Shown here one piece after another: positions 22,286 through 62,066 of a stretch of DNA of 64,000 bases. Source of the DNA: Alphaproteobacteria bacterium. Its GTDB lineage: Bacteria > Pseudomonadota > Alphaproteobacteria > Bin95. Position 1 is the first letter of the stretch, and every line of letters begins with the position of its first letter. The notes under the pieces are model-generated. The model made no database searches and was not told where the DNA came from. It saw only the letters and a list, made by a program, of their open reading frames with translations. Position numbers and translations under genes: made by a program. Location: assembly GCA_965205265.1 (NCBI GenBank), contig CBDBGH010000003.1:64001-128000 (forward strand). The letters run 5' to 3'.

Positions 22286-22361
22286 TGGTGCCGCGCGCAG
22301 GATTCGAACCCGCGGCCTGCCGATTACAAATCGGCTGCTCTACCGACTGAGCTAGCGCGGC
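22286..22361 (-). tRNA. tRNA-Thr(UGU)
   Basis: GCCGCGC/GCGCGGC acceptor stem, AGCTCAGTCGGTAGAGC D arm, GCCGA-TTTGTAA-TCGGC anticodon arm, GGTTCGAATCC T loop, encoded CCA; 76 nt. Confidence 0.97.
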
Positions 22362-42583: not shown

Positions 42584-43000
42584 TCAGGGCGTGGGCGCGT
42601 AGGGGTCGTAGGAGCCGAAATTCCAGAGATGCCCCTCCGGGTCGAGCGCGCCGTAGAGCTGCCCGCCATAGGGCTGGTCCTCCGGCGCCATCACGACCTC
42701 CGCCCCGGCGGCCGCGGCGCGCGCATGGTGCGCGTCCACATCGGCCACGATCAGGTAAGGGCACTGCGTCTGCCGGCCGCCGACCTCGCCGGGCGAGACC
42801 ATGCGCGTGTCGTAGTCCCCGTCGCGCGCTTGGCCCAGCATGACCATGCCGTGGCCGAAGGTCAGCTGCGCATGCTCGATCGCGCCGTCCTCGCCCTCGA
42901 CCACGAGATGGCGTTCGAAGCCGAAGGCGCGGCAAAGCCAGTCCAGCGCCGCGCGGGAATCGCGATAGCGGAGCGTCGGAATTACGGTGGGCGTCGGCAT
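42584..43000 (-). CDS. VOC/glyoxalase-family protein
   Basis: LDWLCRAFGF, HAQL, DQPYG, DPEGHLW. Confidence 0.88.
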   Translation of the reverse strand: MPTPTVIPTLRYRDSRAALDWLCRAFGFERHLVVEGEDGAIEHAQLTFGHGMVMLGQARDGDYDTRMVSPGEVGGRQTQCPYLIVADVDAHHARAAAAGAEVVMAPEDQPYGGQLYGALDPEGHLWNFGSYDPYAPTP

Positions 43001-43080: not shown

Positions 43081-43126
43081 TTTATTTCTCAAAAAAGCTT
43101 GCAATCCTCCCGTCGCGCGCTATATT
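43081..43126 (+). promoter_or_regulatory. sigma70-type promoter TTGCAA-N16-TATATT with upstream A/T tract
   Basis: TTTATTTCTCAAAAAAG UP-like tract; -35 at 43099, -10 at 43121; no credible sense gene downstream. Confidence 0.65.
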
Positions 43127-51552: not shown

Positions 51553-52668
51553 ATGGCTGCTGCGCCCCGTTTCACCCGCCTGGTCGAGAGCCTGCCCTCG
51601 ACGATCCCCTTCGTCGGACCGGAGACGCTGGAGCGCCGCCTGGGGGAGGCGTTCCGCGTCCGCGTCGGCGCGAACGAGAGCGCCTTCGGCATTTCCCCAA
51701 GAGCGGCCGAAGTCATGCGCGAAGCCGTCGGCAATGTCTCCTGGTACAACGACCCGGAGGGCTATGAGCTCCGCAGCGCCATTGCCGCGCTGCACGGCGT
51801 TTCCATCGACGAAGTGCTGCTGGGCGCGGGCATCGACGAGATGCTGGGCAATGTCGTGCGCATGGTCGTCGAGCCGGGGCAGCCGGTCATTACCTCGCTC
51901 GGCGCCTATCCGACCTTCAACTACCATGTTGCCGGCTTCGGCGGGGTGCTGGAAGCGGTGCCCTACCGCGACGACCTGATCGACCTGGAAGCCCTGCTCG
52001 ACGCCGTGCGCCGGCTGGAGGCGCCGCTCGTTTTCCTCGCCAATCCCGACAACCCGATGGGCACCTGGCACGACGCGGCCGCGGTGCGCGCCTTCATCGA
52101 CGAGCTGCCGGAATGGACGCTGCTGGTGCTGGACGAGGCCTATATCGAGTTTGCGCCCGCCTCGGCGGTGTTCCCCATCGAAGCGGATGACCCGCGCGTC
52201 ATCCGCATGCGCACCTTCTCCAAGGCGCATGGCATGGCGGGAGCCCGCATCGGCTATGCCATCGCGCCTGCCCGGACCATCGGCGGCCTCGGGCGCATCC
52301 GCAACCATTTCGGCGTCAACCGCATCGCGCAGGCCGGCGCGCTTGCCTCGCTCCATGACACGGATTTCATCGCCTCCGTGGTCCGGGACGTCGAGCGCGG
52401 GCGCAACGAATACTACGCGCTCGCCCAGCGGCTCGGGCTCTCCACCGTGCAGTCCGCGACCAACTTCGTCGCTATCGACATGGGCGGCGACGGCGAGAAG
52501 GCCCGCGCGGTGCTGGCGCGGCTGCAGGACGAAGGCGTGTTCGTGCGCATGCCGGGCGTCGCCCCGCTCGACCGCTGCATCCGGGTGACGGTGGGAACGG
52601 CGGAGGAACGCGCGCTGTTCGCGGAAGTCTTCGAGGCCGTGGCCGCCGAATTCACGGGGCAAGGCTGA
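51553..52668 (+). CDS. Class I/II PLP aminotransferase (HisC-like)
   Basis: GANES, ANPDNPMG, LDEAY, RTFSKAHGMAGARIGY, RVTVG. Confidence 0.9.
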   Translation: MAAAPRFTRLVESLPSTIPFVGPETLERRLGEAFRVRVGANESAFGISPRAAEVMREAVGNVSWYNDPEGYELRSAIAALHGVSIDEVLLGAGIDEMLGNVVRMVVEPGQPVITSLGAYPTFNYHVAGFGGVLEAVPYRDDLIDLEALLDAVRRLEAPLVFLANPDNPMGTWHDAAAVRAFIDELPEWTLLVLDEAYIEFAPASAVFPIEADDPRVIRMRTFSKAHGMAGARIGYAIAPARTIGGLGRIRNHFGVNRIAQAGALASLHDTDFIASVVRDVERGRNEYYALAQRLGLSTVQSATNFVAIDMGGDGEKARAVLARLQDEGVFVRMPGVAPLDRCIRVTVGTAEERALFAEVFEAVAAEFTGQG

Positions 52669-52741
52669 GCGCCGGGTTTGATTCGATCTTTCGCTCTACG
52701 GTTTTGTTCGCTTATTTATTGTGATAATTCCAACAATATTA

Positions 52742-52769
52742 TTGACATTTGGAAATCATATGTTACATT
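52742..52769 (+). promoter_or_regulatory. Strong sigma70-type promoter TTGACA-N16-(TGT)TACATT
   Basis: Consensus -35 and extended -10 inside a markedly AT-rich island (52680-52770). Confidence 0.75.
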
Positions 52770-52775
52770 AGGGTG

Positions 52776-53045
52776 GAGAAAGGGAGCGGCATCCGGAGCC
52801 GCTTCCCGCCCGCGCCGGTCCGGTGCGGAACGACCCCGATTCAGCCGACAGGCGAAGTGCGTCCGGCGCCTGCCTCGCGCGCGGGGGCGCATGCGGGCAA
52901 TCAGGCGCGCGAACCGCGCCGGCGCGAAACGCGCGCCCGCGCCGGCACAGGCGCGCGCGCAGGATACGCGCGGTAAAGGGTCCCGCTGTTCGGGCAGGCC
53001 GGGCGGCGGGAAGAACGGAACGACGACGGATGGAGAGGAAGGCCC
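52776..53045 (+). ncRNA. Candidate structured RNA / leader, copy A of a dispersed family
   Basis: Collinear homology to 61695-61967 (minus strand); conserved 5' hairpin; 45-nt core with one mismatch. Confidence 0.5.
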
Positions 53046-53250
53046 ATGCCGAAGACACGAAACCCGGGAAACCGGATGGAATACCCGGAACCGCACCTTC
53101 ATGCTCGAAAAGACAATCGCCCATGCACCATGAACATGCGGATCATGACACAACATGACATAGTCGTGGGGTGCCCGGCATCCAACCGGCCGGAACCCGG
53201 CCGCCTGCTCGCCGATTCCTGTCCGCGAAGGTTGGTATAAGCTGTCTGCC

Positions 53251-54894
53251 ATGAGGGGCGAAGCGGTTCTCGGCGACGGGCGGGTCAGGGCGGACTGGAC
53301 GATGACGCATCTGGTCCGCGCCCGTGCCCGCGAGCACGGGCGGCGGGTGTTCGCGACCTTCGAGGGCGGGGCGGCGCTGACCTTCGCGGGCCTCGACAGC
53401 GAGTCGGACCGGTTCGCCGCCGCGCTCGCTGCCTGCGGGGTCGGCCCCGGCGAGCGGGTGATGGCGTTGCTCGGCAACGGGCCGGAAATCCTCGTCGCCT
53501 TTTTCGGCGCGATGAAGGCGGGCTGCATCATCGTGCCCATCAATACCGAGCTGAAGGGCACATTCCTGGAGCACCAGGTCGGGAATGCGGAACCGGCGAT
53601 GGTCGTGGCCGAGGCCGGCCTGCTGCGCGCGTTCGAGAGCATAGACGGATCGGCGCCGGCGCGGCTGGCCGTCGTCGGAGAGGATGCGCCCGCGGTCCCG
53701 CCGGTGCCCTTCGTCGACAGCGCGGTTTCGAGCTTCGAGGCGTTCCTTGCCGCGGGCGACGGCCATCCCGTTCCGGAGACGGCCGCCCGGCCCGGCGATA
53801 TCTGCGCAATCCTCTACACATCCGGCACGACGGGCCCCGCCAAGGGCGCGCTGATACCGCACGGCCATCTCTTCCTCATGTCCGCGTCGACCGCCCGGGC
53901 GACAGGGCTTACGGGCGACGACCTCTACTACGTGTCCATGCCGCTCTTCCACATCAACGCGCTCTGCGCGCAGACGATCGCGGCGCTGACGGTCGGTGCG
54001 CGCGTGCATGTCGTGCGTCGGTTCAGCCCCAACCGATGGCTGGACGAGGTCATCGCCTGCGGCGCGACGCATACCAACCTGCTGGGCGTCATGCCCGAGT
54101 TCCTGTTCAACACGGCCCCCACGCCGCGCGACCGCGACCATCGCCTGCGCGTGACGCTGTCGGTGCCCACCGGCCCCTGGGGCGCGGCGTTCGAGAAGCG
54201 CTTCGGCCTGCGCATCCTCCAGGGTTTCGGGATGACGGAATGCGGCATGCCGTTCTGGTGCCGGCTCTCGGAACCCGTCGAGTCCGGCTGCGCCGGTTAT
54301 GTGGAGGACCGGTGGTACGAGGCTTGCGTCGCCGATCCCGAGACGGATGCACCGCTGCCTGCGGGCGAGGTCGGCGAACTGCTGATCCGCCCGAAAATGC
54401 CCGGCTGCTTCTTCGCCGGCTACTACCGGATGCCGGAGCGCACCGTCGAGGCCTGGCGCAATCTCTGGTTCCACACCGGCGACGCCGCGCGGTTCGACGA
54501 GCGCGGGCGCCTGCACTATGTGGACCGACTCAAGGACTGTATCCGCCGGCGCGGCGAGAACATTTCGGCCTTCGAGGTCGAGCAGGTGCTGAATGCGCAC
54601 CCCGCCATCGCCGAAAGCGCCGTGATCGGCGTCCGGGTGGAGGGCGCGGGCGGCGAGGAGGAGGTGCTGGCGCTGCTGCTGCCGGAGAACGGCGCGCGGT
54701 TGGAGCCCTCGGAGCTGCTGGACTGGTGCGTGCCCCGCATGCCGCGCTACGCCGTGCCGCGTTTCGTGGATTTCGTCGGCGGTTTCGAGAAGACTGCATC
54801 CGGCAAGCTGCGCAAGGGCGAGTTCCGCGACGCCGGCCTGCCGCCCGGCGCCTGGGACCGGGAACAGGCCGGCTACACCATCGCCCGGCAATAG
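53251..54894 (+). CDS. AMP-dependent CoA ligase (CaiC-like)
   Basis: YTSGTTGPAKG, PLFHINA, FGMTE, WFHTGD, RRRGENIS, TASGK. Confidence 0.92.
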   Translation: MRGEAVLGDGRVRADWTMTHLVRARAREHGRRVFATFEGGAALTFAGLDSESDRFAAALAACGVGPGERVMALLGNGPEILVAFFGAMKAGCIIVPINTELKGTFLEHQVGNAEPAMVVAEAGLLRAFESIDGSAPARLAVVGEDAPAVPPVPFVDSAVSSFEAFLAAGDGHPVPETAARPGDICAILYTSGTTGPAKGALIPHGHLFLMSASTARATGLTGDDLYYVSMPLFHINALCAQTIAALTVGARVHVVRRFSPNRWLDEVIACGATHTNLLGVMPEFLFNTAPTPRDRDHRLRVTLSVPTGPWGAAFEKRFGLRILQGFGMTECGMPFWCRLSEPVESGCAGYVEDRWYEACVADPETDAPLPAGEVGELLIRPKMPGCFFAGYYRMPERTVEAWRNLWFHTGDAARFDERGRLHYVDRLKDCIRRRGENISAFEVEQVLNAHPAIAESAVIGVRVEGAGGEEEVLALLLPENGARLEPSELLDWCVPRMPRYAVPRFVDFVGGFEKTASGKLRKGEFRDAGLPPGAWDREQAGYTIARQ

Positions 54895-61461: not shown

Positions 61462-61531
61462 TGTCATGAGATGTCATGATGTGTCATGAGGCGCGCCGGG
61501 CCTCCCCCGCAATGTGTCATGGGATGTCATG
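61462..61531. repeat. TGTCATG array with 10-bp phasing
   Basis: Copies at 61462, 61472, 61482 and at 61515, 61525. Confidence 0.9.
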
Positions 61532-61627
61532 TTTTGCATGCGGACGGCGCATAGCCTGTAACCGTTTCGGGCATGGGGCCGCCCTTCCCGGAATCCCCCG
61601 CCTTCGCCCGGCCGGGGCGGAAGCGGG

Positions 61628-61660
61628 CCCTCACCCGGCCTCTCCCGCGAGCGGGAGAGG
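61628..61660. repeat. Proteobacterial REP-like palindrome
   Basis: CCCTCACCCGGCCTCTCCCGCGAGCGGGAGAGG. Confidence 0.75.
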
Positions 61661-61694
61661 AGAGTTTGAGCCTCCTGCCTGCCTCCTGCATGTC

Positions 61695-61967
61695 GTTCCT
61701 CCATCGCGTTTCGTTCCCTCGTCGCTCCGTTCTCCCCGCCGCCGTGTTTGGCGCGGCGGGACCCTGATTCGCGCGTAATGCGCGCCCGCGCCCCCGCGCC
61801 CGTGGGCGCGCGTTTCGCGCCGGCGCGGTTTGCGCGCCTGATTGCCCGGGTGCGCCCGCGCGCGCGAGCCGGACGCAGGGCGCACCTCGCCCGCTGGCCG
61901 AATCGGGGGCTTTTCCGCGCCGGCGCCGACGCGGGGGGAAGCGGCCTCCGGATGCCTCTTCCCCCAT
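61695..61967 (-). ncRNA. Candidate structured RNA / leader, copy B of the dispersed family
   Basis: Homologous to 52776-53045. Confidence 0.5.
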
Positions 61968-61971
61968 GTTT

Positions 61972-62010
61972 GTTCCTGATTTATTCTAACATGGCTTGGC
62001 CGAAACGCAA
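61972..62010 (-). promoter_or_regulatory. Promoter TTGCGT-N16-(TGT)TAGAAT with LexA-like GAAT-N7-GAAC overlapping the -10
   Basis: -35 at 62010-62005, -10 at 61988-61983, box at 61972-61986 (one mismatch). Confidence 0.7.
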
Positions 62011-62066
62011 GTCTATCGAACCAATTTTTCCTGTTTTCCTGTCATGAGGTTGACATTGAAAGAAAA

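Follow-up and report, generated by a model that had tools for sequence, protein, structure and literature searches.

The 64,000-nt stretch examined here (the window; positions 64,001–128,000 of contig CBDBGH010000003.1, assembly GCA_965205265.1, from an alphaproteobacterium of the Bin95 lineage) carries two related intergenic loci, referred to below as copy 1 (52702–53160, plus strand) and copy 2 (61462–62050, minus strand). Both are most probably cargo-less, decaying members of a genus-specific cassette that is dispersed in high copy number, and the window copies (about 470–590 nt) would be internal-deletion derivatives that have kept both ends. The ~270-nt piece shared by the two loci sits between the promoter of the cassette and the start of its cargo, and is therefore interpreted as the 5' untranslated region (5' UTR) of the cassette rather than as an independent RNA gene. 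An initial annotation of the window had favoured a new structured RNA family of about 270 nt, a proposal that is not supported as worded, since the leader taken as a whole folds no better than shuffled sequence. It had also offered, as an alternative, a non-autonomous mobile unit with its own promoter, and this is the best fit to the gene-bearing relatives of the two loci and to the empty sites found for copy 1 in congeners. A candidate RNA family is replaced in this way by a defined, lineage-specific repeat family, which fills intergenic DNA and breaks assemblies.

A high-copy family restricted to one genus

The genome comprises 5.70 Mb in three contigs (99% complete, rated 7.28% contaminated), with a chromosome of 68% G+C. 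A blastn search of this genome with copy 1 gave 79 high-scoring segment pairs (HSPs) merging into 73 loci, and an nhmmer profile of the leader gave 80 hits, every one of them chromosomal, 72 of which begin at or before model position 14, with the same 5' hairpin (P1). The claim that the element is multi-copy was thus correct but understated, with about 70 copies in this genome rather than two. Copies 1 and 2 lie in opposite orientation and have a mean column identity of 76% across about 590 aligned nt; their 45-nt cores differ by a single mismatch, and all the collinear blocks named in the initial annotation are present, which bears out the shared architecture on opposite strands described there.

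The leader is present in 13 of 16 congeners and was found in none of 10 genomes of genus g2 and none of 10 of genus g3, the two other genera of the same taxonomic family. The three congeners without the repeat are 100% complete and, at 3.4, 3.6 and 3.8 Mb, the smallest but one (the 13 carriers have genomes of 3.5–6.1 Mb), so that the repeat family may track genome expansion within the genus. Many of its matches in fragmented relatives sit at contig ends. The genus is known only from metagenome-assembled genomes (MAGs), and both its closest records and the sequencing runs that contain it are largely sponge-derived. A survey of the literature, with subscription journals outside its coverage, found such a cassette nowhere described. 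Identical copies with identical flanks were observed far apart on the chromosome (contig C3), at 268–521 and 4632835–4633088, at 43120 and 5414112, and at 42781 and 5413773; these pairs may reflect large duplications or assembly redundancy.

Organization of the cassette

The anatomy of the unit was established from an alignment of 16 long copies, the upstream flanks of 72 copies and the 3' ends of 62. The order of its parts is fixed: an AT-rich promoter, P1, a GC-rich leader, a hairpin followed by a ribosome-binding site (RBS) and a start codon, the cargo, and a 3' module. The AT-rich stretch that opens the unit is about 75 nt long, with a TTTGTTC motif close to its start; mean A+T content over the 70 nt that precede the copies is 64% (32% for the chromosome), and TGTTC occurs at the expected distance in 51 of 72 copies. 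The promoter pattern is TTGnnn followed by TGnTAnnnT, the spacer between them measuring 15 nt in 37 copies and 16 nt in eight. An extended −10 element was found in 50/72 copies, as against 146 of 1440 dinucleotide shuffles (10.1%), and a −35/−10 pair with at least nine of 12 matches in 33/72 copies, as against 127 of 1440 shuffles. A −35 and an extended −10 separated by 16 nt had been assigned to both window copies; this promoter was recovered in copy 1 (TTGACA-16-TACATT, 10/12 matches, with an upstream TG), whereas nothing in copy 2 passes the same scan, its −35 failing and only the extended −10 being kept. The promoter would fire, with the 5' hairpin stabilizing or insulating the transcript. 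The leader, about 270 nt overall, has some 250 nt of GC-rich sequence after P1, with the core mid-way, and ends in every case in an RBS and a start codon. The hairpin preceding the RBS, together with a purine-rich tract, would tune translation of the cargo.

The 3' module opens with a frame of 15 codons and a short hairpin, which are followed by a pair of CATGACA heptamers at 10-bp spacing; beyond a spacer of about 30 nt, three further heptamers are often found. The CATGACA repeats reported downstream of the two loci are indeed present and correspond to this 3' end of the unit: a same-strand cluster lies 280–1310 nt downstream of 62 of the 72 leaders, and the arrangement of two heptamers, spacer and three heptamers is found in copy 2 and in other copies. 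The small open reading frames (ORFs) following the two leaders, which had been described as unrelated, are actually homologous remnants, with a common, conserved ATGCCGAAGAC start and the 15-codon frame 43 nt before the first heptamer. Among the 72 units, this frame is intact in 44, interrupted by an early stop in six (copy 1 included) and without a start in 12, the remaining 10 having no heptamer cluster. Its column entropy is the same at codon positions 1, 2 and 3 (12.44, 12.41 and 12.23), giving no sign of coding selection. Among the indels counted relative to the leader profile, 389/2177 (18%) are multiples of three, a proportion used here without the total, which may be inflated by the alignment format. 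The initial annotation was therefore right to place the conservation at the nucleic-acid level. The parts of the two window copies are listed below, in window coordinates.

52702–52774, plus strand: copy 1, AT-rich 5' module (edge motif TTTGTTC at 52703–52709, −35 TTGACA at 52742–52747, TG at 52761–52762, −10 TACATT at 52764–52769)
52776–53045, plus strand: copy 1, GC-rich leader, putative 5' UTR of the cassette (nhmmer hit 52775–53055; start placed from the position of the −10)
52782–52806, plus strand: copy 1, hairpin P1 (GGGAGCGGC, loop ATCCGGA, GCCGCTTCC), at the predicted transcript start, in the minimum free energy (MFE) and centroid structures
52894–52938, plus strand: copy 1, 45-nt core, more conserved than any other block of the family
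52980–53010, plus strand: copy 1, pre-RBS hairpin (CCCGCTG... / ...CGGCGGG), in the MFE and centroid structures
53032–53048, plus strand: copy 1, purine-rich RBS and conserved start codon (ATG at 53046–53048), relic of the cargo start; ATGCCGAAGAC is kept in long copies
53100–53160, plus strand: copy 1, 3' module with the 15-codon frame (early stop), a small hairpin and CATGACA at 53144–53150 and 53154–53160, 10 bp apart
61462–61531, minus strand: copy 2, 3' end with five heptamers (TGTCATG on the plus strand), three at 61462–61488, a 26-nt spacer and two at 61515–61531; these are the direct-repeat families D1 and D2, with 10-bp spacing
61532–61690, minus strand: copy 2, remainder of the 3' module and small-ORF relic (start codon 61690–61688)
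61691–61967, minus strand: copy 2, leader (P1 at 61933–61965, inverted repeat I3; core at 61804–61848)
61968–62050, minus strand: copy 2, AT-rich promoter module (extended −10 TGnTAGAAT, with the −10 at 61988–61983, and a weak −35, TTGCGT, at 62010–62005, by reading the sequence)

Relative to copy 1, copy 2 has a nested insert of about 60–100 nt (61580–61680, minus strand; a 62-column gap in the alignment), which holds a perfect 10-bp hairpin (inverted repeat I9, CCTCTCCCGC/GCGGGAGAGG). Inserts resembling it occur in the copies at C3:220201 and C3:689970. An extra heptamer, TGTCATGAGGT, a member of D2, lies at the 5' edge of copy 2 (62040–62050) in the same orientation as the five 3'-end heptamers, and the 5' edge of other copies reads TTGTTCATGAA. 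This heptamer may point to short direct terminal repeats, or to insertion beside an older array.

Cargo genes and their products

A census of the 72 units, by tblastn with two proteins, found seven whole and two partial A-type genes, nine whole and two partial B-type genes, and 52 units with neither; both window copies belong to this cargo-less class. Annotators would call the 7 + 9 genes 'terminase small subunit' or 'hypothetical', and would miss the other 50-odd copies. The seven A-type units, about 1250 bp long and 93–98% alike, have an ORF of 300–311 aa that matches Pfam Terminase_2 (3.7e-13; 50.7 bits, the cut-off being 26.1) and the 'terminase small subunit' family PHROG 51 (1e-13). Terminase_2 has seven matches in the genome, all of them A-type copies. 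The A-type protein has no match in NCBIfam, and neither protein matches the defence models of PADLOC. An AlphaFold2 model of the A-type protein, built with 108 homologues, is all-helical, with a mean pLDDT of 65, averages of 87–92 for residues 11–60, and long disordered stretches. The best Foldseek match of this model in the PDB is the DNA-binding domain of the SF6/SPP1 small terminases (4zc3, 2cmp; TM-score 0.82 normalized to the target; 39–40% identity over 50 residues), with weak E-values of 0.14–0.6. From sequence and model, the N-terminus of this cargo of about 305 aa is predicted to be an SPP1/SF6-type small-terminase helix-turn-helix DNA-binding domain, which would bind the heptamer arrays; the C-terminal two thirds are unrelated to the SPP1/SF6 terminase and largely disordered. 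The B-type cargo is an acidic, aromatic-rich protein of 197 aa that falls into no Pfam family and has a best score of 0.85 in the ESM Atlas, under the level that counts.

One and the same set of genomes from uncultured Alphaproteobacteria holds hundreds of homologues of each protein, with several in every genome, and the named records with such homologues are MAGs, several of them labelled as sponge-derived. The leader profile was found upstream of A-type genes in 50 of the 79 related loci searched (52 hits in total). Three truncated A-type units jump from about codon 22 of the ORF straight to the heptamers, as expected of internal deletions, and long and short forms are linked in this way. 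The short copies would be moved in trans.

Structure and conservation of the leader

The proposal of a stand-alone, promoter-driven family of structured small RNAs, in which each copy would yield an RNA of about 270 nt acting in trans, has some attraction: the copies have their own promoter and a high copy number, as in some small RNA families, and their sequence is strongly conserved, with indels that break reading frames. It nevertheless seems quite improbable, because in every copy the leader gives way to an RBS and a start codon, no terminator having been found after it in scans of copy 1 and copy 2, and because most of it gives no sign of a selected fold. When the MFE of the whole leader is compared with 200 dinucleotide shuffles, the z-score of copy 1 is −0.18 on the sense strand and +0.25 on the antisense strand, and that of copy 2 is −0.90. 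In 50-nt windows from 37 leaders, the mean z-score is −1.67 for positions 1–50 (41% of windows below −2) and −1.09 and −0.93 over positions 201–260, whereas the windows between 21 and 240 have means of −0.49 to +0.39, no better than shuffles. RNAalifold, applied to 66 leaders, gave 22 pairs with a covariation term of −0.55 kcal/mol, only two of the 22 pairs changing on both sides; for these leaders and for 43 P1 regions its results were poor or empty, the MAFFT alignments having set the stems out of register. Mutual information with average product correction (APC) over 114 leaders was no more favourable to a structured RNA, its top pairs mirroring subfamilies rather than forming Watson–Crick ladders. 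The element had not been recognized as a known RNA family, and this was confirmed by a comparison with Rfam 15, which at gathering score gave no match at the two loci and a single one in the whole window, a tRNA at 22289–22361 (minus strand); at E-values of up to 10, region 52600–53300 returned five rows at chance level, all far under the gathering score.

The 5' stem-loop is conserved. It folds in 114 of 114 leaders, and compensatory changes are seen in its covariance model, in agreement with the initial annotation, which had described a hairpin kept despite changes in sequence; the small-RNA proposal finds an argument in this element. The model (R1), built from 14 sequences, matched 42 times at E-values of up to 0.001 in 90 loci (32 distinct matches), a number indicating that it misses P1 variants with longer loops. 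Among its matches, 91.5% of 281 cells are paired, as against 44–61% with the partner slid, and three of nine pairs change on both sides (14 cells). The covariation score of 0.206 (shuffled mean 0.154) was reached by none of 500 shuffles, in an alignment that was fitted to the model and therefore favours the structure. Within the leader, covariation was found for the 5' hairpin alone, the remainder being unsupported on sequence-based alignments. A hairpin before the RBS is probably also a feature of the family, although weakly supported: by eye, other subfamilies keep its position and build the stem from different sequences. Shared across cargo classes and congeners, the central core is conserved in sequence and not in fold, its stability being no greater than that of shuffles.

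Insertion polymorphism and drift

Copy 1 is flanked by genes for a class I/II aminotransferase and for an AMP-binding enzyme (the latter at 53251). Among 40 relatives searched, this gene pair is about 46–105 nt apart in eight congeners (HSP coordinates), as against 576 nt here, and the closest genome, G014, is alone in matching right through copy 1. When the filled sites (this genome and G014) are aligned with empty ones (G012, G009, G007 and G016), about 530 nt are absent from the latter; the flanks of the empty sites are too diverged for the exact ends to be fixed or a duplication to be shown. The absence of copy 1 from at least eight relatives, together with the genus-restricted range, indicates that the family behaves as a mobile element.

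Compared with G014, copy 1 is identical at 231 of 255 leader positions (0.906), with 17 gapped positions; identity is 0.841 for the promoter module and 0.917 for the small-ORF and 3' module. The four-fold degenerate sites of the two flanking genes have identities of 0.836 (189/226) and 0.863 (272/315), and copy 1 therefore drifts close to the neutral rate. Such drift of an orthologous copy, gaps included, is a further point against an RNA acting in trans.

Several observations weigh against a mobile cassette in decay. Neither window copy has terminal inverted repeats, as had been noted from the outset for both: all the inverted pairs detected lie inside the GC-rich leader, and none joins the ends. 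No flanking direct repeat has been reported at the window copies, whose exact ends are not fixed, and clean empty sites were not found at three other loci (copy 2 included), at which each congener has different DNA or a contig break. No transposase was recognized, longer relatives encoding only the Terminase_2-type helical protein or the 197-aa protein; the A-type protein is modelled with no beta strands, and is therefore no DDE, HUH, serine or tyrosine recombinase of known fold. The genome has no match to the Y1 transposase family (Y1_Tnp, PF01797), for which a control search hit six of 14 reference genomes. The identity of the copy 1 leader with that of G014 is slightly above that of the four-fold sites, so that some constraint is possible, weak at most, and the strong conservation of the 45-nt core across subfamilies remains without an explanation. 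In a comparison of public runs (three sponge metatranscriptome runs and one likely DNA run, contigs only), leader-like contigs were present in the sponge metatranscriptome with a leader/flank depth ratio similar to that of the probable DNA run, and nothing therefore follows on transcription, start sites or strand.

The lack of terminal inverted repeats and of a visible target duplication is what would be expected of a relic of an IS200/IS605-type single-strand transposon (PATE or REP-like), hairpin-dependent and moved by a Y1 (HUH) transposase. Hairpins do lie near both ends of the unit (P1 and the small one before the heptamers), and the elements sit behind co-oriented genes in 40/61 cases. 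This origin is extremely improbable, given that the search for Y1_Tnp, successful in its controls, found nothing in a genome that is 99% complete, and that the 5' boundary falls within AT-rich DNA some 80 nt ahead of P1. The IS200/IS605 family is not known to have a counterpart to the heptamer arrays.

The known kinds of element closest to the cassette are MITE-like deletion derivatives (miniature inverted-repeat transposable elements, MITEs) and mobile promoters. Like MITEs and other non-autonomous derivatives, its copies are short, gene-less, numerous and intergenic, retain both ends of a longer gene-bearing relative, have promoter activity as judged by sequence, and show presence/absence polymorphism between related genomes. 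Correia/NEMIS elements are promoter-carrying elements of the MITE type. Unlike MITEs, the cassette was found with no terminal inverted repeats and its parent has no recognizable transposase; no target duplication was visible at the window copies, and the copies are also larger than most MITEs (about 470–590 nt). As terminal inverted repeats, a transposase-encoding parent and a Y1 transposase were all looked for and not found, the cassette is filed as a member of neither the MITEs nor the IS200/IS605 family.

Relation to neighbouring host genes

Neighbouring genes were called crudely, as long ORFs whose G+C content is high at third codon positions and lower at second ones, around 61 elements. 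No gene is overlapped by 55 of these elements, and the upstream gene is co-oriented with 40 of the 61, a mild tendency of elements to lie behind the ends of genes. Co-orientation with the downstream gene is seen in 30/61 cases and, among short elements with a gene no more than 300 nt away, in 13 of 31. These counts bear on the idea of domesticated mobile promoters, kept because they drive a downstream host gene, which in the case of copy 1 would be the AMP-binding gene at 53251. Copy 1 ends 90 nt upstream of this gene, in the same orientation, and the element has no internal terminator. Mobile promoters are a concept already in print: 'Promoter reuse in prokaryotes' (PMC3575422) deals with a homologous promoter and leader placed before unrelated genes at many genome sites, and the 72 copies described here likewise sit beside unrelated genes. 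The cassette promoter differs from the putative mobile promoters presented there in that it belongs to a longer unit, which has a cargo of its own and a defined 3' end. With no co-orientation bias, nothing suggests that the promoters are retained for driving host genes; copy 2, moreover, faces the 3' end of a convergent DUF3179 gene, and the gene pair around copy 1 does without the element in at least eight congeners, making domestication very improbable.

Predicted small-terminase-type binding and a possible link to packaging

A bolder interpretation of the cassette arises from the SF6-type DNA-binding domain of the A-type protein and from the layout of two repeats, spacer and three repeats, which resembles pacL-pacC-pacR. 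In PMC4737164, the small terminase of SPP1/SF6, G1P, is described with pacL, pacC and pacR, which contain direct-repeat boxes; the A-type cargo shares the DNA-binding domain of this protein and likewise has two phased direct-repeat blocks with a spacer nearby. It differs from G1P as an orphan gene, present in seven whole chromosomal copies outside any phage, and its binding to the heptamers is only predicted. The family could then be a transposase-less selfish cassette, with an orphan small-terminase-like protein encoded beside its own pac-like, phased heptamer site and about 70 copies scattered over the chromosome, an idea considered unlikely. The protein, possibly SOS-controlled, would load the large terminase of a phage or gene transfer agent at the arrays, a step that is equally doubtful; cassettes and neighbouring DNA would, on the same long odds, be packaged first and spread, the short copies, those of the window included, being pac-only hitchhikers served in trans. 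Another possibility is that the arrays serve as decoys for packaging and thereby weaken infection. If it were true, the hitchhiker interpretation would add a novel route by which genes spread, or a novel kind of phage interference.

Two features of related loci, phased repeats and an SOS-type box, speak in favour of this idea. Genes for small-terminase-like proteins about 55% identical to the A-type protein are found in other MAGs, several of which carry a sponge label; the leader of these genes is short, and phased CNTNACA repeats occur in six of the nine distant loci inspected. A perfect GAAC-N7-GAAC is present in 43 of 147 loci, a sequence that Table 1 of PMC9578287 gives as the Caulobacter SOS box. 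Congeners have it clustered 13–35 nt ahead of the A-type start codon, and distant short-leader relatives have it directly behind the −10; its place before the small-terminase-like start codon is fixed in many related genomes (about 1466–1488 in L031-L108; about 1399–1429 in L076, L078, L081, L082, L091 and L092). In this genome's own copies the box is imperfect. The location of the long leader suggests a genus-specific insertion that separates the promoter from the SOS-type box. The packaging idea is weakened by the absence from the genome of large terminases of four families, PF03237 (Terminase_6N), PF03354 (TerL_ATPase), PF04466 (Terminase_3) and PF05876 (GpA_ATPase), other families not having been searched, and by the fact that it leaves the colonization of new chromosomal sites unexplained. 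A dispersed cassette in decay, the favoured interpretation of the window loci, raises the question of what moves a unit that has no transposase or inverted ends, and only a small-terminase-type DNA binder and phased repeats.

Other repeats and insertions around the family

Orphan CATGACA clusters were considered as a path to a master element and rejected, as most of the 88 belong to another repeat family ending in CATGACG. This second, unrelated family on chromosome C3 is palindromic, GTCATGCCCGGACTTGTTCCGGGCATC ... GATGCCCGGAACAAGTCCGGGCATGACG, often followed by a tandem GATATGGGGG(C)GGGCATGACG (for example at 1080424–1080451, 1632078–1632105 and 2805239–2805266), and accounts for most of the 88 orphan CATGAC[AG] clusters. 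The motif CCTGTTGTCAACCT has 14 chromosomal sites (840625, 980263, 1205687 and 2926077 among them), 12 of which lie beside members of the cassette family, some abutting heptamers; as a recurring end motif it was tested as an insertion sequence (IS) and ruled out, its surroundings being a mosaic of short repeats and not an IS with genes. One element (C3:2141359–2145945) is interrupted by about 4 kb of inserted DNA, in which three ORFs (132, 131 and 594 aa) share one orientation and have an order and sizes reminiscent of IS66. An IS-like end, ...CGTCGAAGTCAGGAA, occurs at 34 sites (for example 690259, 2837655 and 3856192); it abuts CATGACA arrays at two of them and the promoter module of one element, a placement that suggests another element targeting the cassette family.

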